Source: a virus. From it: a DNA stretch of 12,456 nt. The stretch lies in the UHGV virus genome UHGV-0079174. The stretch is one strand, 5' to 3'. Each line of letters begins with the position of its first letter. The stretch's first letter is position 1. Positions 1 to 12,456 of the stretch are shown piece by piece. The notes beneath the pieces are model-generated. The model was given only the letters and a program-made list of their open reading frames with translations. It was not told where the DNA came from and made no database searches. The position numbers and the translations under genes were made by a program.

Positions 1-187
1 CATGTACCGGAACTTTAGGTTTTTTTCGTTGAGCGTCGCGAATAGCTTCACTGTGTGGACGTGCTGCATGAACCGGGCGGCTGTCTAAGATTAGCAAGGT
101 CTAAATACACCTCCAGTTTCAGATGGTTCCTAAAGGTGATGCTTGTGGTTATGATAGACAGAAAGATAAGACTTCCGAGGGTTAGCT

Positions 188-1021
188 ATGAGTGATGGGT
201 GGTTAGATTCTACTATGCAAGCAATAAACGATAGGATTAAAAGCCCATTATGGGGATATATCATTCTTGCATGGGTATGGTTCAACTGGCCTAACTTAGC
301 AATGCTCTTTATGAGTGATGCGCCTGTTAAGTTTCGAATAGATTATATACTATCTCAGGAATATTTTTACGCTCATTATCTGCTTGCTCCTGTCTTTTTT
401 GGAGGTGTGCTAGCTGTTATTACTCCTTATGCTCAATGGTTACTTTCTCTTGCTCAAAAATGGGCTACAGATAAACACAATGAAAATGTTTATCTTACAA
501 AGGAAAAAGAATACTTGGATTCAATCAGGTTAACGGGGTTAAAGGTTCGGGCTGCCAGAGAAGAAGAGAAAGAAAATGCTAAAATTGATGCTGATATTAA
601 AGCGGAAGTAGAGCGTGGTAAGCGTGAAGAGCTGGTCACAGAAGAGCTACAGACAGAGAAGAAACTGATTCAGAAAGAAATTAATAATTTAAAGCAGTTA
701 GTATCTAAAGAAAAACAAACCATTGAAAATATCGAGATAGAAAAAGAGAGACTACAGGATTTGATTGTTGCCTCACTTGAGGTAATGGATGATTTCTTTA
801 AAGTTGATAATAGCCATTCATTACAGCAATTGAAGAGTAGGGTAGAAGAACTTTTAACAGTTTCTGATATTGAAGCTTCTACCATACGTAACGCGCTACG
901 ACAAAAGAAAGAGCTAACTTCATCACAGACAATGAAAATGTTCGATATGGTAGAGGCTAAAATTAAAAAGGAAAAAGAAAAAGGTAATAATATAGAGTCG
1001 AATGAATTAATTAACCAATAA
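188..1021 (+). CDS. Hypothetical membrane protein: two N-terminal hydrophobic helices followed by a long charged coiled-coil-like C-terminal region
   Basis: 277-aa ORF from the track. ATG at 188 preceded by GAGGG (177-181). Hydrophobic segments WGYIILAWVWFNWPNLAMLF and HYLLAPVFFGGVLAVITPYAQWLLSLA, then an E/K-rich heptad-like sequence. No catalytic motif recognised. Confidence 0.6.
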   Translation: MSDGWLDSTMQAINDRIKSPLWGYIILAWVWFNWPNLAMLFMSDAPVKFRIDYILSQEYFYAHYLLAPVFFGGVLAVITPYAQWLLSLAQKWATDKHNENVYLTKEKEYLDSIRLTGLKVRAAREEEKENAKIDADIKAEVERGKREELVTEELQTEKKLIQKEINNLKQLVSKEKQTIENIEIEKERLQDLIVASLEVMDDFFKVDNSHSLQQLKSRVEELLTVSDIEASTIRNALRQKKELTSSQTMKMFDMVEAKIKKEKEKGNNIESNELINQ

Positions 1022-1061
1022 TGCTATGCCTGTAAATAACAGGACATAAACAGGTTAGTAC

Positions 1062-1309
1062 CTATGCAATTTAACGGTATTTTTCCAAGTATCTATGCAA
1101 TCCTACACAGATTCTATACAGTATCGACATAGCCCCTTTTTATCATAACTTATTGAAATATATAGAGAATCTGTAAATCCTCTTTTCAGGGTAAACTGTA
1201 TCGTGTTAGTCGTTCCTCTCTCGACACTACATACAGTGCTATATACAGGACTATATAACGGTGTCTATGCAGTTGGTCACTATCAATATTCCCTTAAAGT
1301 GACTATCAA
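1062..1309. repeat. Cluster of short direct repeats (iteron-like) in non-coding DNA
   Basis: CTATGCAAT at 1062-1070 and 1093-1101 (31 bp period); CTATGCAG at 1265-1272; GT(C/G)ACTATCAA at 1276-1286 and 1299-1309 (23 bp period). No ORF in the supplied track in this stretch. Confidence 0.4.
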
Positions 1310-1457
1310 GCTACTTAATAGTTTCCTATATGAAAGTTAGGAGGCGATAGTTATAGTTCCTTCGTAGTTCCCCTTAAAAAATCACTTAGAGACATCTTAA
1401 TCTATATGCAGATTTCACGTAGAACACGATTAGTGCGTAAAACAGCTATTATGTTAA

Positions 1458-1486
1458 AAACACACTGTGTTTATATCAGTACTGAT
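1458..1486. promoter_or_regulatory. Two adjacent palindromes, operator-like
   Basis: AAACACA-C-TGTGTTT (1458-1472, 7-bp arms) and a perfect 12-bp palindrome ATCAGTACTGAT (1475-1486), 2 bp apart. Confidence 0.3.
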
Positions 1487-1637
1487 TTATAAGGGTTTTG
1501 TGTATTGGCTGATAAGAGGCTATACAGCACCTTGAGAGCATGTCTTATAAGTCATTGACACATAAGGTCACAGAAGTTTGTAGCTGTTACAGAGAAAACT
1601 GGATAGGACTTCACAGAATTATAAAATGTTACAGCTA

Positions 1638-1665
1638 TTGATAGATGAAATCTTCTTGATAGATG
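1638..1665. repeat. Exact 10-bp direct repeat TTGATAGATG x2
   Basis: Copies at 1638-1647 and 1656-1665, 18 bp period, in non-coding DNA. Confidence 0.4.
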
Positions 1666-1916
1666 CTTTGAAGTGTGGTTAAGGTTTCTTGAGGTGGAGT
1701 TAACAGATGCCATGAAGAAAGTCAATAATTGGTTATAGATATTTTAACTGCTTTTGCAAAGGGGGGAGCTATATCGTGAATCTGGGGCACTTAACAGCCA
1801 TCAATTGAGTGTAGATATTTTTGAAGATTATCGGTGAAGGGGAATGTAGAGGGGTTACTACGATATTTATAAAAATTTTCAGACTCTGAAAAGTTACTGT
1901 ACAGATTTTATACAAA

Positions 1917-1940
1917 CTAAAAAGGACTCCCGAAAGAGTC
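1917..1940 (-). terminator. Candidate intrinsic terminator on the minus strand
   Basis: Stem GGACTC (1923-1928) / GAGTCC (1935-1940), 6-nt loop. On the minus strand the hairpin is followed by TTTTAGTTTGT. No T-tract follows it on the plus strand. Confidence 0.3.
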
Positions 1941-1975
1941 CCTATAAGTCGATTTTTAACGTGGCTACGACAATC

Positions 1976-2029
1976 CACCCATACCGCACCAAACCTTACC
2001 CCACCGAACCGCACCCTACACGACCTTAC
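1976..2029. repeat. C-rich (plus strand) / G-rich (minus strand) imperfect tandem repeat
   Basis: CCGCACC occurs twice and CCTTACC twice within about 55 bp (roughly CACC..ACCGCACC..CCTTACC repeated). Compositionally unlike the flanking AT-rich DNA. Confidence 0.3.
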
Positions 2030-2550
2030 CTCGCCGGACACTGCCATAGAGAGTGTGCTTGGTTGCTTTGGAAGTAAACCTAGTACAGTAAGCCATTATA
2101 CATATCGAGATAGTAACGTCAAGAAACTTTTAACAGGAGGGGTTCCTATGGTCACATATTCCCTCTCTTCCCACTAAGTAAGTCTTAGCAGCACCTAAGC
2201 AACAATTGACTAACAGGTTCGGTAGAGTCTATCTCATAGGTCAACTTCATAAACTCAGAGTTAAGTTACCTTGAAAGATTCTACCAAGAAACTACACAGG
2301 TGTTATTTAGTCTGACTGTGAAGGGATATTTAACGGGAGGAGAGATACGATATAACCCGAAGGGAGAGTATCATCTTAACAATTATCTTAAGAATAAAAC
2401 TGAAAAGTTCTTAACAGATGACTACCTAGAAAGAAGGGAACGATAAGACCAGAGGTAGTGACCTTGTTAAACAGGCTGTTTCAAAGCTCTTAAGAGTCTG
2501 TTAAGTAAGGGCTATGTGAACAATCTTACCATTTTGTCAATGCTTTTGTC

Positions 2551-2596
2551 TTTAGCAAAAAGTGCTAAACTTAACAAAAAGCACTAAATGCTAAAG
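2551..2596. promoter_or_regulatory. Repeat and inverted-repeat cluster just upstream of the methyltransferase gene
   Basis: TTTAGCA (2551-2557) / TGCTAAA (2563-2569) inverted repeat; 15-mers CAAAAAGTGCTAAAC (2556-2570) and CAAAAAGCACTAAAT (2575-2589); AAATGCTAAAG at 2586-2596 recurs at 3716-3726, and a related AAATGCTA lies in the promoter spacer at 4181-4188. Confidence 0.3.
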
Positions 2597-2634
2597 AGAC
2601 GATTAAGAAATATACTAAGAGGGGCGCTTCGCTT

Positions 2635-3303
2635 GTGTCACATCCAATAATCAATGTTGGTCGTTATCATGGTGGTTCTGATGACTGGCGTACACCGTAT
2701 CGTTTATTTCATAATCTGCATCGTGAGTTTAACTTCAGTCTAGATGGCGCTGCAACTGAGCATGACGCATTGTTGCCACGGTTCACCGATGATATTCACA
2801 ATCAATCATGGGTTGGTGAACGGGTCTTCGTTAACCCGCCGTTTAGCATGGCTGAAAAGTTCCTCTTAAAAGCCCCTGAAGCTGATGTGTGTGTATGTCT
2901 GGTTCCGCTCAGGTCAAAGACAACTTACTGGCTTCGGTGTGTATATACAAACCCCTTCCTGCATGAGATTCGAACGTTGCACCGAGCAGTCAAATACCTT
3001 CCACCAGCAGGAAAGAGAGGTGTTGTAGTGCGCTCACCGTTTCCAAGTTGCGTTTTGATATACAGGAACACACCCCGCAAACCGAAAGTTGAAGTTACCC
3101 AGACAATCTATTGTGGTGACACAATGCTTTTACTTGCCGTGGTTAACAGGGGTGGTTTACGTGGAAGACCTCATATGCACAATGCACAGACGCTTGACAG
3201 GTTGATTAAAATGTATGACCAAGGGCAACCCATCAAGAGCATCGCAGAATCGCTAAGAATGCCTCTAAGCACCACTTACAGGATTGTTCAAAGGTTGGGC
3301 TGA
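2635..3303 (+). CDS. Phage Dam-family DNA N6-adenine methyltransferase with C-terminal helix-turn-helix extension
   Basis: 222-aa ORF, GTG start 9 nt after AAGAGGGG. N-terminal DDWRTP, then VFVNPPFS (N/DPPY/F-type catalytic motif) and LVPLRSKTTYW...SPFPS, the pattern of phage Dam-type orphan methyltransferases. The last ~40 aa (GQPIKSIAESLRMPLSTTYRIVQRLG) read as a resolvase/Hin-type HTH. Family assignment is from motif memory, not a search. Confidence 0.7.
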   Translation: MSHPIINVGRYHGGSDDWRTPYRLFHNLHREFNFSLDGAATEHDALLPRFTDDIHNQSWVGERVFVNPPFSMAEKFLLKAPEADVCVCLVPLRSKTTYWLRCVYTNPFLHEIRTLHRAVKYLPPAGKRGVVVRSPFPSCVLIYRNTPRKPKVEVTQTIYCGDTMLLLAVVNRGGLRGRPHMHNAQTLDRLIKMYDQGQPIKSIAESLRMPLSTTYRIVQRLG

Positions 3304-3350
3304 AGTTCTCATATAGAGCACTGATTACGAGAATGTTAAAGATGCGATTT

Positions 3351-3541
3351 CCCCTTTCTGGGGTTATTCGCTTTTTACTGGAAGGGTTATTTTACAGAGG
3401 TTTTTCAAACCCCCTCAATAATAGAAACGAGCAACAAACGAAGAGCGAGAAATAAAAATATTGAGACTGGTGAACGGGGGTCTGTAAAGATTGTTTAAGA
3501 AGTCGGTTAAGAAGGTGGCTCTCCCTGTCTGGGGTTATCGC
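3351..3541. repeat. Direct repeat CCCT..TCTGGGGTTAT(T)CGC x2, about 171 bp apart
   Basis: CCCCTTTCTGGGGTTATTCGC (3351-3371) and CTCCCTGTCTGGGGTTATCGCC (3522-3541), in DNA with no ORF in the supplied track. Confidence 0.35.
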
Positions 3542-3768
3542 CTTGTGTCTTAGTGAGTCTTGAAAGTTCTCTGTGAAGAGTCTTGTCAGTCCTTTATATT
3601 GGCTAATTACAACTCATTGAAAAAATAAGCATTTTTAGAAATTACTGTCAGAGGGGTGAATACTTGATAGATACAGCTTTCCGGTTCTGTCAAGCTATTT
3701 ATTAATGGATAGCACAAAATGCTAAAGATACCCCTATACCATCACGTACAGGGGGTTTTGAAGGGAGT

Positions 3769-4026
3769 TTAACGGGGTTCTGTGTGGTCGTTATCCTTAA
3801 GGTCAAGCGTCCATGTACGACCGAACAGTTTAAAGACAACAAGCACTCTGACGAGGACGTAGCGAAGTAGCAGACCTGCAATCAGCCCAACACCTCCACC
3901 AGCCCATACATCAGGTGACCCCAGCTCAGGAGGGAGATTTACCATTAGTTTTCCTTGTAAGACGCTCTCAATCGCATTCTGACACAAAAAAGTACCTGAC
4001 CTTATATGTTGACCTGAAGAGGCCAT
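3769..4026 (-). CDS. Hypothetical small protein with one hydrophobic segment; coding status uncertain
   Basis: 85-aa minus-strand ORF with hydrophobic stretch GGGVGLIAGLLLRYVLVRVLVVF. A candidate minus-strand promoter lies upstream (4126-4155). Weak ribosome-binding site. Confidence 0.3.
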   Translation of the reverse strand: MASSGQHIRSGTFLCQNAIESVLQGKLMVNLPPELGSPDVWAGGGVGLIAGLLLRYVLVRVLVVFKLFGRTWTLDLKDNDHTEPR

Positions 4027-4125
4027 TTAACTCGTTACAGAGCGATTGAAGAGGTCTGTGTGCAATGCAATAACCATGCGGCCATTCTCATAGCCACGCC
4101 TCATATTTTACTCTCCCATAAACCC

Positions 4126-4155
4126 ATTATACCACAGATGTTAATAAAATGTTAA
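4126..4155 (-). promoter_or_regulatory. Candidate sigma70-type promoter on the minus strand, divergent from the plus-strand promoter
   Basis: On the minus strand: -35 TTAACA (plus 4150-4155), 18-bp spacer, -10 TATAAT (plus 4126-4131). Confidence 0.3.
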
Positions 4156-4161
4156 AAATGC

Positions 4162-4190
4162 TTGACATTAGTCTTTGAAAATGCTAGTAT
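4162..4190 (+). promoter_or_regulatory. Sigma70-type promoter (first of two matching promoters)
   Basis: -35 TTGACA (4162-4167), 17-bp spacer, -10 TAGTAT (4185-4190), followed by TGTATATATAGG (4191-4202), which is identical to the 12-mer after the second promoter. First gene starts 51 nt downstream. Confidence 0.55.
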
Positions 4191-4240
4191 TGTATATATA
4201 GGTTAACACAGAATTAACAATTATAAGGACTAGCTTATGA

Positions 4241-4795
4241 ATGAGAGACGCAGAATTTAGAGCGATGCTTCAGGCATCGAGACAACGTAACAGATACAAC
4301 TCCTACAGCTACACAGACACCCCCACCAGCTACGAATTACCCAAGCTCACCCAAAAAGAACGCAAAGGCATTGACGAAGTAATTCGGGCAATTACACCGA
4401 GGGAACGTTATATGCCAACCAGAAAGAGCACGAAGAACAGCATCAAAAATTATTTGAATAACTTCGACAGCTATGAGCAACTACCAAGTAAGCTTGATGA
4501 TATTTTCATTGGATTCTGTAGAAGTGAAGGCCACCCGAAATACAACAAAAAACTATTTTATCTTCTAAAGAATCTTGACGAAATTAACGCATCCAGCGTG
4601 ACAAATCGTCTTCAGCGTCAAGCAACCAGACTTAGCTACGAATTACCAACCGATGCCTATTGTGCATTGCTTGCTGTAATGTGTGCAAAGCTAATTGGTA
4701 TTGTTGAACATCATATTGCCGTTGGTAATATTGAGCCAATGGAAAACGAGCAACCAGACTTTGAGTTTGACCCGTATATTTTGGAGGAATTTTAA
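4241..4795 (+). CDS. Hypothetical protein with acidic C-terminal tail
   Basis: 184-aa ORF, ATG at 4241 preceded by TAAGGA. C-terminal EPMENEQPDFEFDPYILEEF. No recognisable domain. Confidence 0.55.
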   Translation: MRDAEFRAMLQASRQRNRYNSYSYTDTPTSYELPKLTQKERKGIDEVIRAITPRERYMPTRKSTKNSIKNYLNNFDSYEQLPSKLDDIFIGFCRSEGHPKYNKKLFYLLKNLDEINASSVTNRLQRQATRLSYELPTDAYCALLAVMCAKLIGIVEHHIAVGNIEPMENEQPDFEFDPYILEEF

Positions 4796-4796
4796 A

Positions 4797-5078
4797 ATGG
4801 GAAATAAACACACATTAACCAGAGTTACAAAGACAGCCTTTGAAGAGCTTAACCGAATCAAAAACATTACAGGTCTGCCACACTCAGCAGTGATGAAGCT
4901 TGCAATTAACCGTGATATTAACGAACAAGATTTGCTTAATAGTCGCTTAGAGGCAGCAAGACACCATATCAGGATTAAGCAAGATGACCTTGATAGTCTG
5001 AAATATTTAAATGCTTTTGGACTGGATTTAGCAAGGTTACTAAGCATCAAAATTCACAAATTAGCGATGGAGGTTTAA
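4797..5078 (+). CDS. Small protein, possibly a ribbon-helix-helix DNA-binding protein
   Basis: ATG at 4797 sits 9 nt after GGAGG (4783-4787) and 1 nt after the upstream stop; the track's 4695 start would overlap the upstream gene by 100 nt. N-terminus KHTLTRVTKTAFEELNRIKNITGLPHSAVMKLAI resembles a strand-helix-helix pattern. Fold call is tentative. Confidence 0.5.
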   Translation: MGNKHTLTRVTKTAFEELNRIKNITGLPHSAVMKLAINRDINEQDLLNSRLEAARHHIRIKQDDLDSLKYLNAFGLDLARLLSIKIHKLAMEV

Positions 5079-5464
5079 TGTATGACTTTTATAAACATCG
5101 TGACCATTTGGTAAGATTTGACGGTAAAGTCTGGAAAGACGTAACACAAACCAATAAACCCAAGTTTACCCACCAGCAATTAGCCTCAAGATTTGATATC
5201 TGGACTGAAGCACAAAAAGATAATGGTGATTTCGAGTTTATCAGAGGTTTTGATTATTCTTACGAAGACGACCTTAAAGACGCCATTAAATTAATTGAGA
5301 ACTTCAACTCTATTAAAAATGGTGACAAGCACAAAGCCAACGGTAACAGATACGATAAAGATTTAATCATTGATGCAATCACCAAAGGACAATCACAAAG
5401 TTATATTTCTGAGAAATACGGCTTATCACGTAGTCAATACTACAAGATTAAAGCGTCTGTGTAA
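5078..5464 (+). CDS. Hypothetical protein with C-terminal helix-turn-helix
   Basis: 128-aa ORF. Its ATG overlaps the upstream stop (TAATG at 5076-5080), indicating translational coupling. C-terminal DAITKGQSQSYISEKYGLSRSQYYKIK is the same resolvase-type HTH flavour as the methyltransferase C-terminus. Confidence 0.6.
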   Translation: MYDFYKHRDHLVRFDGKVWKDVTQTNKPKFTHQQLASRFDIWTEAQKDNGDFEFIRGFDYSYEDDLKDAIKLIENFNSIKNGDKHKANGNRYDKDLIIDAITKGQSQSYISEKYGLSRSQYYKIKASV

Positions 5465-5476
5465 GTCTGTGAGAAT

Positions 5477-5523
5477 GAGTGAGACTCAAAGATGAGCTAC
5501 CCTATTACTAAGGTGTCTCACTC
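5477..5523. promoter_or_regulatory. 9-bp perfect inverted repeat GAGTGAGAC / GTCTCACTC separated by 29 bp
   Basis: Arms at 5477-5485 and 5515-5523, between two genes. No T-tract follows, so it is more likely a binding site or RNA structure than a simple terminator. Confidence 0.3.
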
Positions 5524-5602
5524 CCTCTGTAACCCGCATGGTTACTGGCCTCAGGATGGCTATTTTGGCAGATTTAAGATGTGTTTTTAGAGGATTTTAA
5601 AA

Positions 5603-5926
5603 ATGAATAATTTCCCGCTACAGATTTTCGTTGATAGCGACACCGCTCTGATGATTCAGGCTTTCAGTGATTCCGGTGTATCAATTGACTTTGATAAATT
5701 ACTAAAGCTAATGGCTGATAACTCAGAAACAATTGAAGATTTTATTCAGGAAATTGAAACTGGTGACCCACGTTTTATGTTTCCCGTTACCGACTCAAAC
5801 ATGAAGCGCCTTATTATTGAGGAAACTAACCGATACAGCGTTAGCCCTGAAAAATATCTCAAGGCGGCTATAGTAATTTTGTACGCTGACAATGTTTTGG
5901 TTACGGATTCGAAGGTGGTGCATTAA
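5603..5926 (+). CDS. Hypothetical acidic protein
   Basis: 107-aa ORF, ATG at 5603 preceded by AGAGGA (5589-5594). Confidence 0.55.
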   Translation: MNNFPLQIFVDSDTALMIQAFSDSGVSIDFDKLLKLMADNSETIEDFIQEIETGDPRFMFPVTDSNMKRLIIEETNRYSVSPEKYLKAAIVILYADNVLVTDSKVVH

Positions 5927-5991
5927 TGGAATTGGTGATTATCTGTTTTGTATTGATTGGTATGATTGCAGGTGCATCTATTAAAGTATAA
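5926..5991 (+). CDS. Candidate 21-aa hydrophobic micro-protein MELVIICFVLIGMIAGASIKV
   Basis: ATG overlaps the upstream stop (TAATG at 5924-5928). Almost entirely hydrophobic, one predicted transmembrane helix. Below the ORF-track size threshold. Confidence 0.3.
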   Translation: MELVIICFVLIGMIAGASIKV

Positions 5992-6015
5992 ATGTTACCA
6001 ATCTGTTAAAAGCTG

Positions 6016-6044
6016 TTGACAAATAACCTTGAGCATGACATAAT
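6016..6044 (+). promoter_or_regulatory. Sigma70-type promoter (second of two matching promoters)
   Basis: -35 TTGACA (6016-6021), 17-bp spacer, -10 CATAAT (6039-6044), followed by TGTATATATAGG (6045-6056). Confidence 0.55.
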
Positions 6045-6146
6045 TGTATATATAGGGAGAGCAATTCTCCTTGAATTAAAATATTAATCATTCTACATCG
6101 ATGATAACTATATTCTGAGTTGGAAAGGTGCAATGCTTTTCGCTAC

Positions 6147-6175
6147 ATGACCTCTTATATAACTTGAGAGGTCAT
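6147..6175 (+). promoter_or_regulatory. Hairpin in the long leader (9-bp stem ATGACCTCT / AGAGGTCAT, 11-nt loop)
   Basis: Perfect 9-bp inverted repeat about 100 nt downstream of the predicted start site. No T-tract follows. Confidence 0.35.
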
Positions 6176-6234
6176 CTCGAAAAGTCTTTGTTCATTCATT
6201 GAATCCTTTAGATGTTCTTTAATTTCTTCACCTT

Positions 6235-6270
6235 AGCCCTTTATAGCGTTTTAGTTATCTAGGGCTTTTT
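6235..6270 (+). terminator. Terminator-like hairpin inside the leader (possible attenuator)
   Basis: Stem AGCCCT (6235-6240) / AGGGCT (6261-6266), 20-nt loop, then TTTT (6267-6270). Lies about 190-220 nt downstream of the promoter and about 110 nt before the first gene. The long loop weakens the call. Confidence 0.3.
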
Positions 6271-6378
6271 CAGCTTTTAAAAAGCATACATGGCAAACGC
6301 TTTTAAGTCTCTTCTAAGTTCGTAGGCTGTCAGGTGTGCTTTTTAAAAACTGAATATTACTTAGAAGAGGAAAATGAA

Positions 6379-7086
6379 ATGGAAAATCTATATATTAGCG
6401 GTAGAAAGGTTGATAGCTTCGGTGACTGGTCGCCACAGACTGAACATCCAGCTATCACTATTCAGCGTAAAGAACACGATGAAAGAATTAAGCTTGAGCA
6501 ATCGTTAAAGATGTCACCAAAGGTAATTTCCTTTGTGTCTCCTGAGCCTCAAGAAATGCCAGATATCTGCAAAAGTGAAGCACTATTTAATCTTGAGCGT
6601 GAATATTACCCACAGTTAAAAGCACAGCGTATTAAACTTGATGACGCTTACAGCAAAGTTACCCTGATGCAATCAGCTATTGAGCCGTCAGAATTTGAGA
6701 TTCAGGATGAATTGTCACAGAAACCATTTGTCTATTACAAATATGAAGACAATGATGGTTTTGGTACTTTTCCTGAGAATATCCCAGACGTGATTAATAA
6801 TCTTTCTGACGGATATCGAATTGTGAAGATGGTTAAGGCATCAAGAGGTGCTGGTCAGTTTATTTACATGACTAATAAGAGCGATGAAGAACTCGCTGAA
6901 CTTGCTAGACAGAACATCTTGGCATCACGTAACAAGCAGCTTGATAGTGCTAAGTTGTATCTCTCAAGAGAGCTTCAGGCTATGAAAGAGCTTGTTAGTG
7001 AATATGAGTCGCAGAAGAAGGTTGCTATGCAGGCTGATATTGAGCAGCTTACGAAGATTTCTAGCAAATATGCAAAAGCTATTTGA
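6379..7086 (+). CDS. Hypothetical protein with C-terminal coiled-coil-like region
   Basis: In-frame ATG at 6379 preceded by GAGGAAAA (6367-6374); the track's GTG at 6334 has no ribosome-binding site. 235 aa from 6379. No recognisable domain. Confidence 0.55.
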   Translation: MENLYISGRKVDSFGDWSPQTEHPAITIQRKEHDERIKLEQSLKMSPKVISFVSPEPQEMPDICKSEALFNLEREYYPQLKAQRIKLDDAYSKVTLMQSAIEPSEFEIQDELSQKPFVYYKYEDNDGFGTFPENIPDVINNLSDGYRIVKMVKASRGAGQFIYMTNKSDEELAELARQNILASRNKQLDSAKLYLSRELQAMKELVSEYESQKKVAMQADIEQLTKISSKYAKAI

Positions 7087-7094
7087 GGTGATTA

Positions 7095-7403
7095 ATGAGT
7101 GATTTAACAGAACGCGATAAAAGAATTAAAGGGGTGATGGAACCTTTTGAAGATAGGTTCAATGAAATTAAAACGACTCTTGGTGATATTCAGGAGGTCA
7201 CTGAATATCTTATTGGTCGTATGGACGAAAAGCCTCTTGCCGAACTAAAGTTTGAGGGTCGAGATGATTTAACCTTCCTTATTAGAGACCTCAAGCGAGA
7301 TGTAGGACGGCTTGAATCTATCTTTGATAAAGCTGGTCTCTCAATACGTTACGAAATTGTAAAGAATGAACGCGGTGTAAAGTGCATTCACTTCTTGGAG
7401 TGA
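7095..7403 (+). CDS. Hypothetical small acidic protein
   Basis: 102-aa ORF. Extended Shine-Dalgarno GAGGTGAT (7085-7092) before ATG 7095. N-terminus MSDLTER. Confidence 0.55.
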   Translation: MSDLTERDKRIKGVMEPFEDRFNEIKTTLGDIQEVTEYLIGRMDEKPLAELKFEGRDDLTFLIRDLKRDVGRLESIFDKAGLSIRYEIVKNERGVKCIHFLE

Positions 7404-7425
7404 AAATTGAATTATGAGGTGATGA

Positions 7426-7632
7426 ATGATTGATTTAACAGAACGCTATGAACTCATCAGGGCAATTAGCGAACGATTGAAAGAACAACCCAACAAACCA
7501 AAACGAATCAAATCATCCACCTCTAAGCAAAATAACAGAATCAGAAGAATCGCTAAATGGTGTCTTGATAAATTACCAAGTGATTGTCAGATTGTCGGTG
7601 AAGATGGCAATTATTATCTTGTCAGACATTAA
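7426..7632 (+). CDS. Hypothetical small basic protein
   Basis: 68-aa ORF. GAGGTGAT (7416-7423) before ATG 7426. N-terminus MIDLTER. Its first ~37 bp are near-identical to the start region of the gene at 7095. Confidence 0.5.
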   Translation: MIDLTERYELIRAISERLKEQPNKPKRIKSSTSKQNNRIRRIAKWCLDKLPSDCQIVGEDGNYYLVRH

Positions 7633-7658
7633 AAAGAATTGGTTGGGTAAAAATCAAC

Positions 7659-7699
7659 GGGAGAGATTATCGAGTGACATCGGTAGCTCTCCCTTTTTT
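7659..7699 (+). terminator. Candidate intrinsic terminator
   Basis: Stem GGGAGAG (7659-7665) / CTCTCCC (7687-7693) followed by TTTTTT (7694-7699). The 21-nt loop is long for a canonical terminator. Confidence 0.4.
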
Positions 7700-7814
7700 G
7701 TATATGTGCTACGTGATGATTCGGATAAGAATTATCCTCATGAAATCTGTAAAGCTAATACCCACACTGAAAAATAGAATTTACGTACAACACGCTTAAA
7801 GAGGTGAAACATGA

Positions 7815-9863
7815 ATGAGCAAATTCACAGTTGATAGTTTTATCGTTGAACTAGGCTTCAATGAGAACGTTATTAAAGGTCTGCAAAAAGTTGAAAAGGC
7901 AGCTTTGCAGTCAGCACAAAGAATTGAACGTAATTTGAATAGAGCGTTTAAGGTCGATACCAAGCAACTTGACAGTAATTTAACGGCTTCTTTAAAGTCA
8001 ATGGAAGGGAAGATTAATAAGACCTTTGACCGTCTGGAAGCTAGAGCAAAAAATACTAAAGCTTTCCGTTTCACAAGTCAGGTTAATGACGCTATTAATC
8101 CTCCAAAACAACCAAGACAGCCACGAATTAGCGGAAACAGAGCAATCACAGCAGCTTATTCAGCTAATATGAGCAAGCTGAAAGGTCTTAACCCAATTGT
8201 CGAGAAATACATTAAGAGTCAGTTTTACGCATTAAGTAGTAAAGCTGGTCAGATGGATAACACCAAGTTTAATGAAGCCCTCGCTAAACTAAATTCAAGT
8301 GTACGAGAAGCAATTGCTAAAGCCAGAGGTCATACATCCACCAGCATTAACGGTGACAGAGCAGCTAGCAGTCTTGATAGTCTGTCTTCAGCAGCAGTTA
8401 AAACAGCAGGTGCATTTATCAGCTTTCAGGCTGTACTATCCGCTTATCAGCGAGTAATGGAAGTTGGCCTTCAACGTGCATCATCGGAAAGAAGTATTGA
8501 TTTCGTATTCGGTGACCAAAGTACACAGGTTAAAAAGTTCATTCAAGATTTAACTCAAATTACTGGTATGGACACAACCGAAACACAAGCACAATTTGCT
8601 TCATTTGGTGCATCTGCAACGACTACGATGGGTCTTGAAGGGTCAGAAGAGTTATTTAAAAACCTTACAGGTTATGCTCGTTTAATGGGTCGTTCAGATG
8701 AGCAGATTCAAAGAGCATTAACCGCAGTGTCACAGATGGCCTCTAAGGGTCAGGTGATGGCTGAGGAGTTGAAGGGGCAATTATCTGAAGCTTTGCCGGG
8801 TGCTACTCAGGCATTTGCAAAGGCTTTAGGTCTGACTGAAAAACAACTTTTCGATAAGATGAAAAATGGTGATGTTAAAGCCTCTGATGCACTTCCTAAG
8901 TTTGCTAAAGAACTTGGTGCACAGATTAATTCAAGAGGTGGCTGGAAAGCTATTCAGGACTCTACGCAGACAATGTTAGGGAACTTAAAGAATACCTGGA
9001 ATAACTCACTAACGGATATTTTCAGAGGTTCTGAAAATGGTCTGCAAGATTTTACACGAAGCCTAACAACGCTTTTAAACAGTTTAGGTGGAAGTGGTAA
9101 AAGTCTTGGTGAATCTCTTGGTAGCTTGATGACTGATATGTCGCATGGTGTGGATAGCCTGACCGATATCAGTTACAGAGTGAGAGCTTTCTTTGATGAG
9201 GTGACATTGGCTTACCGTGGTTTAACCGATGAGCAAAAGAAAGTAGTTGATGCTTTAGGTTCTGGCTTGATTAATAGTTTAAAAGTCTTGGCTGGTGTTA
9301 TTGCTGTAAATAAAGTTGTTGGTGTAACCAGAAGTATTTACGGGCTTATGACTGCTATCACAAGATTAGGTCAGGTCGCTGATACAACAGCGGATAACGT
9401 GAATAGAAAGAACGGGAAACCATCAAGGTTTAATCTTGGGAATATGCTATTAGCTGGTAGTGCTATCTATGCAGGTTATGAGAGATTAGCTTCTACGCCT
9501 GAACGAATGGAAGCACAAGCTAAATTACCAGAGCTGGCTAAAGAGTCTGGACTTAAGCCAGTATTTACTATGGACGATGTGAAAGGTTGGTTTAATAGTG
9601 CTGCTATGAATCTTGCTAACTTCCAGCATCCAGAATTAATCACCATGAGACAAGATGCGGCATTAACGAATACGGATATCCAAAGCCTGAGAGATGAAAT
9701 TAGTGCTTTGAGCAAACGTATTCAGGAGCCTGTGAAAGTTTCACTTGGTGGTGAAGTTGCCATTAAACCAGATGAAACCAGCTTTATGACCTTTAGCAGT
9801 AATATCTACGACCAATACGCAGAAGCTACGCTATTAAGTTCATCATTCCCAGAAGATGATTGA
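7815..9863 (+). CDS. Tape-measure-like protein (phage tail length tape-measure domain)
   Basis: 682-aa ORF, AAGAGGTGA before ATG 7815. Central segment KGQVMAEELKGQLSEALPGATQAFAKALGLTEKQLFDKMKNGDVKASDALPKFAKELGAQ matches the conserved tape-measure domain pattern from memory. A/S/G/L-rich helical composition with internal hydrophobic segments. Confidence 0.6.
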   Translation: MSKFTVDSFIVELGFNENVIKGLQKVEKAALQSAQRIERNLNRAFKVDTKQLDSNLTASLKSMEGKINKTFDRLEARAKNTKAFRFTSQVNDAINPPKQPRQPRISGNRAITAAYSANMSKLKGLNPIVEKYIKSQFYALSSKAGQMDNTKFNEALAKLNSSVREAIAKARGHTSTSINGDRAASSLDSLSSAAVKTAGAFISFQAVLSAYQRVMEVGLQRASSERSIDFVFGDQSTQVKKFIQDLTQITGMDTTETQAQFASFGASATTTMGLEGSEELFKNLTGYARLMGRSDEQIQRALTAVSQMASKGQVMAEELKGQLSEALPGATQAFAKALGLTEKQLFDKMKNGDVKASDALPKFAKELGAQINSRGGWKAIQDSTQTMLGNLKNTWNNSLTDIFRGSENGLQDFTRSLTTLLNSLGGSGKSLGESLGSLMTDMSHGVDSLTDISYRVRAFFDEVTLAYRGLTDEQKKVVDALGSGLINSLKVLAGVIAVNKVVGVTRSIYGLMTAITRLGQVADTTADNVNRKNGKPSRFNLGNMLLAGSAIYAGYERLASTPERMEAQAKLPELAKESGLKPVFTMDDVKGWFNSAAMNLANFQHPELITMRQDAALTNTDIQSLRDEISALSKRIQEPVKVSLGGEVAIKPDETSFMTFSSNIYDQYAEATLLSSSFPEDD

Positions 9864-9875
9864 TAATAGTCGAAT

Positions 9876-9930
9876 GCTACGTGAAATCTCCTGAACAGAT
9901 ATACCCACCAAAAATTATTTTTCACGTAGC
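9876..9930. promoter_or_regulatory. 11-bp perfect inverted repeat GCTACGTGAAA / TTTCACGTAGC separated by 33 bp
   Basis: Arms at 9876-9886 and 9920-9930, between the tape-measure-like gene and the next gene. TTTCACGTAG also occurs at 1413-1422. Confidence 0.35.
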
Positions 9931-10020
9931 TCACGCTTAACAGATAAAACACTTAAATATCAAAGGCTTGGTTAAAAATGATTAAAATACACTAAGTCTT
10001 TGAAATCAAAGGAGAATATA

Positions 10021-10794
10021 ATGATTTACACTAATCAACTTCGTTACAGTGGCAAAGATGGTATCTATTTCCACTTAAGAGATAATGTAGATGCCTTCTT
10101 AACCTTATCAGCAACTGAAAACATGGAATTTGACAGCCCTATGCAGGTGACTACACAGAACATGCAATCAGGGCAAACCGTAACAGATAACGTGCAAAGA
10201 GCACCCAGAACAATCACTATTAGTGGTGTCGTTGTAGTTGGCTATGAAGGAAGCTTATTATTAACTCGTCAGGGTCAATTAGTAGAAAATTTCATCGACA
10301 CTCTTGAAAGCTGGCGTGACCAGAAGCAGATTATTTCTGTCATCTGTCGAGACGGTATCAAAATTGATGATTCCATTATTACGAGTTTTAAAGCCTCTAA
10401 AGATGTTGGAATTTCAAATGGTCTAAGAATCCAGCTAACTTTTCAGGAAATTAACTTCAAAGCCATTGTGGGTCAGACTGATATCTCTGCTGCAACTGGA
10501 AAGACCGCTACCACAAATGATGGTGGTGCTACTTCTAAGAAAAATACGGGTAACACTACGACAAGTCTAGGTAATGGTATGTTGATGTGTCAGGAGCTAT
10601 ATAATCGCTCTACGAGTGAACTCACTAATGAGCAACTTCAAGCCCGTATCAATTGTGGTAGAAGTGTCAAAGTTGAGAACGGAAAAAGCACCTTCTCAGA
10701 TGCCGCTAATGAGCAAGCTTCGAAAGTGCTTAGTAATGCTGGTACAGGTAGTACTTTGAAGAAATTTTCTGTAAATCCTAACAAGCGATACTGA
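10021..10794 (+). CDS. Hypothetical protein, possibly tail-associated by position
   Basis: ATG at 10021 sits 6 nt after AAGGAG (10009-10014); the track's TTG at 10000 is less likely. 257 aa from 10021. C-terminal third is T/G/N/S-rich low complexity. Function is inferred only from lying immediately after the tape-measure-like gene. Confidence 0.5.
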
Positions 10795-10808
10795 CGATAG
10801 AATCTCAA

Positions 10809-12332
10809 CTATATGATAACCTCATCAACATCTATTAAACCCCTCTCAGTGACTTCAGAAAGCGACTGTATAGCCTCTGTAACGTCCTCTGAGGGGTTTT
10901 CTGTTATTGATAGGTCAATTACCTTACCGTTGTGAAAACTTACTTTACAGCGACGTTTAGCAGTATTTAAAACGACCTCTTTAACAGCACTTTTGATTAT
11001 CAGTTGTGCTTCAATCCTTCCCGCCTTTGTAGTCAAGTCACAATCAGACAAACAACCAACATCAATAGATTTAAGGCGTTGTGTCTCCTTCTCGATATCC
11101 GCATCAACCTGTGATAGCTCACCTTTTAACTGCTTTAGTTTGATGGTAATAGCTGACAAATCTTCAATTTCAAGTGATAGCTGTACCAGCTTTTCAATAT
11201 TGCTTGAGATGTGTTCACGGTGTAGCTTCAGCGTATCTATGGTATTCGTCATATCGCTATCAAATCGGTCAAGACGAGATAGCAGGGTAAGTAATGTACC
11301 ATCAGTTTGCTTACGTGAAAGTCCTTTAGCACTACAACGGTTTTCATTACGAAGGGGACAACGATAAATCCCGCTTCTTGTATCGCTAAAGCCTGTGATA
11401 ATCAAAGCATGACCACATTCAGAACAACGGATAACACCTTTGAAAAGATTCACAGCCATTGGCTTATCTGAAGCAGGTTTTCTACCGTAACGAGAATATG
11501 ATAGTTGTTGAACTTTGTAGAATGTTGTTTCATCTATAATTGCAGGATAATAACCAGCTATCTCCTCACAGCCTTTAGGTGTGAAGTAACCAATTACAGA
11601 GCGATTTTTCAGAAGGTCTTGTACTGAGGTTTGACCAAATGAACCCGCTTTATATTGGTTAAGCGTCTGGTGACCTTCATCATTAAGAGTCCTGACAATC
11701 TCCCAGATAGACTTACCCTCTAACCGTAGCTGAAAGCACCTCTTCACAGTCTCCACTTTCTCAGGGATTACAGAGAAGCTTTTACGGTCATCATTAAGCT
11801 TAAGCCATGCAGGACAACGTTTAGAAATCTTGATACCTTCAGAGATGAGTTCTTTTTTACGGTTCCATGCAGCTTGTATACGCTCAGACTTCCTCAAACT
11901 CTCCTCATGCGACCGCTGCATTATCAGAATGCTTTTAATCAGAGCTAACGGGTCTTTAAGAGATTCTCGTGTGTAATGTTCACCATCGGACAAGGTGACC
12001 ACATCTACACCAGAGCGAAGAATGTTTCTGAGTAGCTCACTTGCTTGGTCTACATCTTGACGTGACAGACGGTCAAGAGATTCTATCAAGAGCGTATCAC
12101 CAGCTTTAACAAGCCCTTTCTCGATAGCGGTTAAAAAGTCACCTAAGCCACCTTTCAAGTGCTTACCAGTGAACCCACTCACCCCCAAATCACGGAAGGA
12201 TAAATCTTGGTCAAGGTAGTACTCAGGATGAGCCTTAAGCCAGTCATTAACCATCTTAGACTGTCTGCGTAGTGAGTCGCCTTTGGCTTGTCGCTCAGAA
12301 CTGAATCTGATGTAGCTGATTACACGTTTCAT
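10809..12332 (-). CDS. Large serine recombinase (probable integrase of the element)
   Basis: 507-aa ORF. N-terminal resolvase-type catalytic domain with YIRFSSERQ (nucleophile-serine motif, compare YIRVSTEEQ), a Cys-rich zinc-ribbon-like segment CSECGH...YRCPLRNENRC, and a C-terminal coiled-coil region. This is the domain order of phage-type large serine integrases. Confidence 0.85.
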   Translation of the reverse strand: MKRVISYIRFSSERQAKGDSLRRQSKMVNDWLKAHPEYYLDQDLSFRDLGVSGFTGKHLKGGLGDFLTAIEKGLVKAGDTLLIESLDRLSRQDVDQASELLRNILRSGVDVVTLSDGEHYTRESLKDPLALIKSILIMQRSHEESLRKSERIQAAWNRKKELISEGIKISKRCPAWLKLNDDRKSFSVIPEKVETVKRCFQLRLEGKSIWEIVRTLNDEGHQTLNQYKAGSFGQTSVQDLLKNRSVIGYFTPKGCEEIAGYYPAIIDETTFYKVQQLSYSRYGRKPASDKPMAVNLFKGVIRCSECGHALIITGFSDTRSGIYRCPLRNENRCSAKGLSRKQTDGTLLTLLSRLDRFDSDMTNTIDTLKLHREHISSNIEKLVQLSLEIEDLSAITIKLKQLKGELSQVDADIEKETQRLKSIDVGCLSDCDLTTKAGRIEAQLIIKSAVKEVVLNTAKRRCKVSFHNGKVIDLSITENPSEDVTEAIQSLSEVTERGLIDVDEVII

Positions 12333-12361
12333 TCTTTACCACCATAAAAACTAATAGCGCG

Positions 12362-12390
12362 ATTGTATCGCTTTAGGTGGTGTATTTAAA
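12362..12390 (-). promoter_or_regulatory. Candidate promoter for the recombinase gene
   Basis: On the minus strand: -35 TTTAAA (plus 12385-12390), 17-bp spacer, -10 TACAAT (plus 12362-12367). The -10 overlaps the palindrome GCGAT-TGT-ATCGC (12359-12371). Confidence 0.25.
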
Positions 12391-12456
12391 CGTGTCTGAT
12401 GAAAATCACCCGATTAACGCCGCGCTGATGTAAACCGCGATTAAGCGTTTGTTCCT

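Follow-up and report, generated by a model that had tools for sequence, protein, structure and literature searches.

The stretch of DNA analysed here, UHGV virus genome UHGV-0079174 (12,456 nucleotides (nt), referred to throughout as the window), contains a cassette of five small genes at positions 4241-5991. We propose, with moderate confidence, that this cassette is the early regulatory or DNA-handling operon, equipped with a membrane micro-effector, of a satellite-like integrative island that exploits Felix-O1-type virulent phages. An earlier note, made from the sequence alone, had offered the five genes as a candidate for an undescribed system, fitting a regulatory, toxin-like or superinfection-exclusion module. 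The cassette is not self-contained, however, but one operon of an integrative island of about 12.3 kb that also carries phage-derived tail genes and terminal-repeat DNA. Felix-O1-type phages are widely used in phage therapy and biocontrol, and an island present in about 9% of complete Escherichia coli genomes could alter their host range and efficacy. To our knowledge, satellites of strictly virulent phages are known mainly from Vibrio, namely PLE (elements resembling phage-inducible chromosomal islands) and the phage-inducible chromosomal minimalist islands (PICMI), and none has been described for the Felix-O1-type phages of E. coli. No published description of the island was found in the literature searched, which misses most subscription-journal papers; an earlier description may exist.

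The five open reading frames (ORFs) and their junctions were checked on the window, and all of them, including a 1-nt gap and two TAATG overlaps, are where they had first been described:

4241-4795, plus strand: gene 1, 184 amino acids (aa)
4797-5078, plus strand: gene 2, 93 aa
5078-5464, plus strand: gene 3, 128 aa
5465-5602, plus strand: spacer between genes 3 and 4, 138 nt
5603-5926, plus strand: gene 4, 107 aa
5926-5991, plus strand: gene 5, the micro-ORF, 21 aa

Genes 1 and 2 meet in TAA-A-ATG, with the 1-nt gap at 4795/4797, while the TAATG overlaps join genes 2 and 3 (5074-5078) and genes 4 and 5 (5922-5926). The description of the five genes as tightly coupled was borne out at these three junctions but not between genes 3 and 4; because the 138-nt spacer parts them, not all five genes are tightly coupled. 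Shine-Dalgarno-like sequences were found ahead of genes 2 to 5, and a weaker and more distant one ahead of gene 1. The ratio of nonsynonymous to synonymous polymorphism (pN/pS) was 0.38, 0.33, 0.29 and 0.32 for genes 1 to 4, indicating purifying selection on all four. RefSeq/PGAP annotates these four genes as hypothetical proteins and leaves the 21-aa ORF unannotated. The spacer is almost invariant in the islands carrying gene 3, and its 3' part (from about position 5520) belongs to the core common to islands with an alternative module. Hairpins are predicted in the spacer, folding better than in shuffled sequences (z = -2.4), and no terminator-like site was found in it; its copies are too alike for informative covariation, and an Rfam scan of the entire window returned no known RNA.

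The micro-ORF was retained, with its TAATG overlap on gene 4, in 16 of 16 loci from E. coli, Escherichia albertii, an Escherichia sp. and a Citrobacter. It exists as a 21-aa allele, MELVIICFVLIGMIAGASIKV, and as a 25-aa allele, MGLIIAWTLLGLFVGCWVGNTVNKN, with variants, the longer form being that of most relatives. Across 14 distinct DNA sequences of the 25-aa allele, pN/pS was 0.22 in frame compared to 1.12 and 1.39 in the other two frames. Gene 5 is therefore a genuine micro-protein gene, and the 21-aa hydrophobic peptide that had been proposed is a well-supported, conserved 21-25-aa protein overlooked by standard annotation. Its product is a single hydrophobic helix, with a grand average of hydropathy (GRAVY) of 2.2. 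Searches against small-protein, toxin, antitoxin and defence families, Pfam, NCBIfam and PADLOC included, gave no match for gene 5, and comparison with small membrane toxins of the Ibs, Hok and TisB type gave none at family level.

Gene 4 encodes an acidic protein, with an isoelectric point (pI) of 4.3 and 18 D+E against 9 K+R. In a low-confidence structure model, it is predicted to form two successive beta-strand/helix/helix units that belong to one chain and pack as a pseudo-dimer, in other words a tandem (single-chain) ribbon-helix-helix (RHH). TraY of the F-plasmid relaxosome, AvtR and single-chain Arc are tandem RHH proteins of the same kind, with 6-14% sequence identity to gene 4; unlike them, gene 4 matches no Pfam RHH family, has its acidic pI and stands in no relaxase or oriT context. 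The curated RHH families of NCBIfam likewise gave no match, and a profile search of the PDB returned nothing relevant. By prediction, gene 4 is structurally TraY/AvtR-like, as gene 2 probably is, and neither scores as an RHH family member at the sequence level.

The product of gene 2 is basic (pI 9.7), and its conserved pattern, HT[LV]TR..AF..L..IK and IRI..L..LK..S.K.H.L, describes two strand-helix-helix units in sequence. Matches to DndE, with E values of 0.009-0.02 that fall short of the Pfam cut-off, came from three of the seven members of its family. When its two halves were compared with one another (P 0.017) and with those of gene 4, the alignments had the expected register but were not significant, and profile-profile comparison of genes 2 and 4 detected no homology. 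Gene 2 is thus a putative second tandem RHH, in keeping with its first description as RHH-like. The C-terminus of gene 3, where a helix-turn-helix (HTH) had been predicted, gave weak matches to HTH_28 (E 0.003; 18 bits, with a cut-off of 25), to HTH_7 (E 0.034) and to the HTH of gamma-delta resolvase (residues 143-178, E 0.24), and is a putative HTH of the resolvase/Hin type. The expectation of two DNA binders in the cassette was sustained, at the level of predicted folds, for genes 2 and 3 and fell short in number, given that the predicted tandem RHH of gene 4 raises the count to three to four DNA-binding-type folds.

Gene 1 ends in an acidic, aromatic tail (...ENEQPDFEFDPYILEEF), so that this label of the earlier note, like those of an acidic 107-aa protein and a hydrophobic 21-aa peptide, was accurate. 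Its family is narrow, with 20 representatives, mostly fragments, among 1.84 billion proteins. Two distant relatives of 274-286 aa share its central HTH-like segment and an acidic D-F-rich motif; they contain no Pfam domain and were not located in genome contigs. For genes 1 to 4 together, no significant match and no catalytic or known-family signature emerged from Pfam, NCBIfam and PADLOC, in line with the absence of a recognisable catalytic motif reported before, and the only PHROGs match among the cassette proteins was a marginal one of gene 1 to an unnamed family (E 0.003). No match to genes 1 to 4 was obtained by tblastn against 50,697 phage genomes, and PDB sequence-profile searches with genes 2, 3 and 4 returned noise save for the resolvase HTH match of gene 3. 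Clear homology to phage replication or regulatory proteins, looked for in these phage genomes and PDB profiles, was thus not found.

The DNA flanking the cassette is organised around a repeated hexamer, TGTTAA, hereafter called the iteron, and around two paralogous predicted promoters:

4126-4155, minus strand: P_L, leftward promoter-like sequence TTAACA-18-TATAAT, 11/12 consensus, highly conserved in 11 loci
4139-4155, plus strand: iteron pair O1, TGTTAA-N5-TGTTAA, 11-bp register, just upstream of the P1 -35 hexamer
4162-4202, plus strand: P1, predicted cassette promoter, TTGACA-17-TAGTAT with an extended -10 TG (4162-4190), then the conserved box TGTATATATAGG
4203-4219, minus strand: iteron pair O2, TGTTAA-N5-TGTTAA, covering roughly +5 to +22 of P1, in the orientation opposite to O1
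5993-6009, plus strand: iteron pair O3, TGTTAC-N5-TGTTAA, directly past the micro-ORF stop and just upstream of the P2 -35 hexamer
6016-6056, plus strand: P2, second predicted promoter, TTGACA-17-CATAAT with TG (6016-6044), then TGTATATATAGG; a paralogue of P1

A promoter upstream of the cassette had been anticipated, and P1 is a near-consensus extended -10 sigma-70 promoter. The 41-nt pattern TTGACA-N23-TGTATATATAGG has two matches in the window compared to 0.02 expected. The pair TGTTAA-N5-TGTTAA occurs four times compared to 0.25 expected; three of the four pairs are at P1 and P2, and the fourth is in the left arm of the island (2488-2504). P_L stands back-to-back with P1 and has as its -35 hexamer the iteron at 4150-4155 read on the opposite strand. 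P2 would drive a 235-aa gene, two small genes, a tape-measure gene and a Dit gene. Both P1 and P2 are better conserved between islands than coding DNA, and the iteron pairs are kept in all island variants, including that of Citrobacter, while the adjoining bases vary. In islands with an alternative module (L014-type), the pair falls between the -35 and -10 hexamers of the promoter for the gene-2-like gene, the gene-3-like gene, gene 4 and the micro-ORF, a placement that would fit a repression operator. We also considered the TGTATATATAGG box as a promoter element of Felix-O1-type phages and rejected it, as, over the first 45 kb of Felix O1, it showed no enrichment and did not lie upstream of genes.

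Several E. coli chromosomes contain the whole window with 100% identity, and in them yecE (a DUF72 gene) is split by an insertion of about 12.3 kb. The island occupies window 95-12400 and is complete, with the split halves of yecE at both flanks. From left to right, it consists of a variable left arm, the divergent promoter region, the cassette, the second promoter, the 235-aa gene, two small paralogous genes, a tape-measure gene (TMP_3), a Dit-like baseplate gene and, on the opposite strand, a large serine recombinase gene. Here the left arm encodes a 277-aa protein and a Dam-type methyltransferase; among the islands it variously holds a Dam methylase, AP2-HNH, a small serine recombinase and unknown genes, and the right arm is conserved. 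The features that bear on integration and on the relationship to phages are the following:

10809-12332, minus strand: large serine recombinase, the integration gene of the island
90-114 and 12376-12400: imperfect inverted att arms, fitting serine-recombinase att sites
7815-10794, plus strand: tape-measure and Dit-like genes, in the same order as in Felix O1 (41881-44906)
2411-2505, plus strand: terminal-repeat patch, with homology to the direct terminal repeat of Felixounaviruses; four iterons in 11-bp register form its end

The Dit-like protein is 79% identical in amino acids to Felix O1 ORF165, and its gene is about 94% identical in nucleotides to those of E. coli Felixounaviruses; the tape-measure protein is 29% identical to Felix O1 ORF160. 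Positions 2411-2470 match the interior of the phage terminal repeat and, in the phage collection, only 58 Felix-O1-like genomes. Within a non-coding region of 1.6 kb (12300-13940), Felix O1 itself has a dense iteron array that keeps the 11-bp register; this region contains seven of the eight TGTTAA pairs found in 45 kb, with none expected. In the E. coli Felixounavirus vB_EcoM-Pr103Blw, the equivalent region is an annotated 581-bp direct terminal repeat that opens with three inverted iterons followed by four direct ones. The phage repeat is a TGTTA[AG] iteron array in 11-bp register starting at the genome terminus, and P1 and P2 are embedded in the motif that the island and the Felixounaviruses have in common. 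We know of no function assigned to this terminal array. Terminal repeats in the genus have also been defined by PhageTerm (PMC11737134). Because the Dit gene, the tape-measure/Dit order, positions 2411-2470 and the iterons all match, the island has in common with a single phage genus one structural gene, the order of tail genes, part of the genome end and a repeated motif.

The tape-measure and Dit genes are the only phage-like genes of the island, in which no other tail, capsid or terminase gene was found; they may serve either to build chimeric tails for the island's own transfer or as decoys poisoning helper tail assembly. A scan of the island with Pfam and NCBIfam found no AlpA, primase or replication-initiator family, and PHROGs gave unnamed families and a DNA methyltransferase. 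The island thus has its own integrase, a length of 12.3 kb, no capsid or terminase genes and sequence ties to a specific helper, as a satellite would. Another short patch derived from the Felixounavirus direct terminal repeat or its adjoining non-coding DNA was seen at 1866-1904, and different island variants carry different terminal-repeat patches.

The cassette region was matched, at least in part, in 481 of 5,426 complete E. coli genomes (about 70-100% identity, by a sensitive DNA search), with related loci in E. albertii, an Escherichia sp. and a Citrobacter. At every locus opened, the cassette lay within the same kind of island. Every island variant opened had a gene-2-like protein, gene 4, gene 5 and the tail-gene operon of the right arm, and gene 4 had 3,348 homologue clusters compared to 1,045 for gene 1. 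Many islands have a 71-aa ORF and an HNH_3 endonuclease in place of gene 3, and one has no annotation at all at this position. Gene 1 is absent from one island sub-family (L014/L017), whose upstream unit combines a protein of 313 aa, which has an HTH_36 winged helix at its N-terminus and a very acidic tail rich in D and F, with a small HNH-like ORF. This unit is followed by a promoter, a gene-2-like gene (30% identical), gene 3 (57% identical), gene 4 and the micro-ORF.

Homing-endonuclease-like genes of the HNH_3/AP2-HNH type were observed at three positions among the islands (L003 5144-5668 and 8190-8477; L011 1493-1780; L014 7591-7881). One of them takes the place of gene 3, and the spacer past this insertion is similar to window 3960-4058, suggesting exchange by recombination or homing that may involve HNH-rich helper phages.

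In lifestyle and layout, the island appears to be most like PLE, with PICMI next. Like the island, PLE are small, consist mostly of ORFans in co-directional operons, have a virulent myovirus as helper (a presumed one here) and contain a small transmembrane ORF that initially went unannotated (lidI in PLE, gene 5 in the island). A large serine recombinase is reported for PLE, themselves satellites of a virulent myovirus (PMC6002521), as it is found in the island. LidI, a transmembrane product of 66 or 121 aa from an annotation-missed ORF, collapses the lysis inhibition of ICP1 in Vibrio PLE (PMC7182436). Felix O1 encodes homologues of rIIA and rIIB. LidI is the closest precedent for gene 5, which is likened to it by description. 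Between PLE and the island as a whole, no sequence similarity was detected, and none was sought at the protein level. The island further differs from PLE in its hosts (Escherichia, Citrobacter and Salmonella), in carrying tape-measure and baseplate genes of its own as well as part of the helper terminal repeat, in the absence of a recognised RepA_N-type initiator, in the size of its micro-protein (21-25 aa) and in a satellite lifestyle that is putative. With PICMI and the phage-inducible chromosomal islands (PICI), it shares an integrative nature, the lack of capsid and terminase genes and cis elements copied from a helper; PICMI, too, depends on a virulent phage (PMC10803314). Unlike PLE and PICMI, the island has no recognisable replication or capsid-remodelling gene. 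The island is not a PICI, as it lacks a tyrosine integrase, AlpA, Fis and pri-rep and carries tail genes, and as its cassette proteins are unrelated to PICI regulators such as Stl and Rpp.

In the mechanism that we propose, transcription would start from the strong sigma-70-type promoter at 4162-4190, bracketed by two inverted TGTTAA pairs. The operon would yield a set of small DNA-binding-type proteins, namely a basic tandem RHH (gene 2), an HTH protein (gene 3), an acidic-tailed helical protein (gene 1) and an acidic protein of tandem-RHH fold (gene 4), the last being translationally coupled to a single-pass membrane micro-protein (gene 5). At least one of the cassette proteins would bind the TGTTAA iterons at P1 and P2 and in the terminal-repeat-like patch, and both operons would thereby be controlled through autoregulation or repression. 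Since the helper terminal repeat is made of the same iterons, we propose that the island is coupled to the infecting phage genome, either by titration and derepression or by action on phage DNA ends, replication or packaging. Gene 5 would act at the inner membrane, modulating lysis timing or DNA entry.

A more specific version of this operon model, which we consider unlikely to be right in its detail, is a helper-sensing switch. Here, the RHH and HTH proteins would repress P1 and P2 through the iterons and would be titrated or re-targeted by incoming, amplified phage terminal repeats, with gene 5 as a lysis-timing or entry effector. If so, a satellite would sense its helper by its DNA ends and not by a helper protein, and a peptide of 21-25 aa would be the smallest lysis-timing or entry factor known. 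With four small proteins, a micro-protein and two near-identical promoters with defined candidate operators, the cassette is an obvious experimental handle on these predictions.

Several observations weigh against the operon of a satellite as we describe it. The five genes are not one indivisible unit, genes 1 and 3 being dispensable in some islands. Satellite behaviour of the island, that is induced excision, replication and packaging, is putative: no excised circular form was found, an 11,980-bp metagenome scaffold with a related island ending in chromosomal flanks, and no capsid-size or terminase-redirecting gene was recognised in the island. As to the proteins, the gene 1 model is all-helical, with a predicted local distance difference test score (pLDDT) of 43, and was unusable and left out of the fold search; the pLDDT of the gene 4 model is 61. 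The acidic pI of gene 4 is unusual for a DNA binder, and the protein may instead bind another protein or mimic DNA. Finally, the promoters and operators were deduced from consensus and conservation, and since the iteron read on the opposite strand, TTAACA, nearly matches a -35 hexamer, some of the enrichment at promoters may be promoter sequence.

One alternative, possible but on balance doubtful and partly compatible with the operon model, is that genes 1 to 3 form a replication module. In this view, gene 1 would encode an initiator that binds the origin and, through its acidic tail, brings in replication proteins of the host or the helper; genes 2 and 3 would supply accessory factors for the origin or for DNA processing, and the iterons would be origin repeats copied from the helper. 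The acidic-tailed HTH_36 protein found upstream of the operon where gene 1 is absent (L014/L017) speaks for this, such swapped modules being typical of satellite replication modules. The TGTTAA iterons in 11-bp register, present also in the 1.6-kb non-coding region of the phage, resemble origin iterons, and tandem RHH proteins such as TraY and VirC2 are accessory factors at DNA-processing origins. However, gene 1 has no helicase or primase family match, and scans of Pfam, PHROGs and NCBIfam gave none to initiator families (HTH_36, RepA_N, Rep_3, DnaD). Its family is also tiny, and neither in gene 1 nor beside it is there an AT-rich iteron array, only two short coding repeats being present. Moreover, the location of the phage array in the terminal repeat points at least as much to packaging or end functions.

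Another explanation, which we judge unlikely, pairs genes 4 and 5 as a toxin-antitoxin, abortive-infection or exclusion system, in which the RHH protein neutralises or regulates a toxic membrane peptide. Upon infection, the peptide would depolarise the membrane or block DNA entry, with the upstream genes as regulators. As in type II toxin-antitoxin operons with an RHH antitoxin, where the antitoxin comes first and the toxin second, an RHH-fold protein is encoded upstream of a second small gene and overlaps it, and the TAATG overlap is constant among the 16 loci. Gene 5 is short and hydrophobic like known small membrane toxins, and the pair is the most widespread part of the cassette, as the cluster numbers of genes 4 and 1 attest. 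Yet the downstream product is a membrane peptide with no known toxin fold, and no toxin, antitoxin or defence family was matched; nor are we aware of any toxin as small as 21-25 aa that is neutralised by a protein. In its model, gene 4 is a double RHH within one chain and lacks the extra C-terminal tail that would bind a toxin. In the contexts examined, the pair was confined to this island family, with the tail-gene operon directly downstream, and the two genes showed no sign of independent mobility. Of the regulatory, toxin-like or exclusion module envisaged in the earlier note, the unclassified DNA-binding-type proteins stand, whereas nothing found favours toxicity or exclusion; a toxin or exclusion role of the cassette is neither supported nor excluded.

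It is less probable still that the cassette redirects or blocks helper packaging, its DNA binders reading the terminal-repeat iterons to steer terminase to the island and poison packaging of the phage. The island does hold a patch of the helper terminal repeat along with the same iterons, and the putative HTH of gene 3 is of a kind seen in the DNA-binding domains of small terminases, resolvases and transposases. PICI and the Staphylococcus aureus pathogenicity islands (SaPI) redirect packaging by means of small DNA-binding proteins. Against this, no protein resembling the TerS, Rpp or Ppi types was found, many islands lack gene 3, and the iteron pairs of the cassette region coincide with promoters and not with an obvious cleavage site. 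That the cassette is inert baggage of a decaying prophage remnant, as the four hypothetical proteins of RefSeq and the lambdoid prophage adjoining the island in strain FDAARGOS_1252 might suggest, is highly improbable given five intact ORFs under purifying selection across E. coli, E. albertii and Citrobacter, promoters more conserved than coding DNA, the same core with a different recombinase at another site and the lack of relatives of genes 1 to 4 in the phage genomes searched.

Outside the cassette, the 235-, 102- and 68-aa proteins of the island likewise had no tblastn match in the 50,697 phage genomes. The 102- and 68-aa genes open with an 89%-identical 38-nt repeat (7084-7121 and 7415-7452) that includes a ribosome-binding-site-like sequence and the first codons. 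They occupy the position of two Felix O1 genes of the size of tail-assembly chaperones (41241-41881), with no homology detected. The related island with a different serine recombinase was found at another chromosomal site. Matches in IMG/VR were mostly provirus predictions, apparently from isolate genomes as judged by their identifiers and by contigs of 20-55 kb. In strain FDAARGOS_1252, the lambdoid prophage, which has a tyrosine integrase, abuts the island at the yecE locus (L001 16815-20457), and the IMG/VR matches may reflect such juxtaposition of prophage and island.

On the left side of the divergent region, P_L points at a hairpin (4097-4078) and a 58-aa hydrophobic ORF (3769-3945, minus strand), which is annotated by RefSeq here and in one relative only. 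The region (3769-3945/4078-4155) could specify a second small membrane protein, or a non-coding leader or small RNA of the switch region. Further into the left arm, the palindromic box AGCAC-N-AAATGCTAA is present in two copies 26 nt apart upstream of the Dam gene (2554-2594) and again near 3711 (3702-3731). A related sequence was observed in the Citrobacter island, and the box is probably another left-arm operator.

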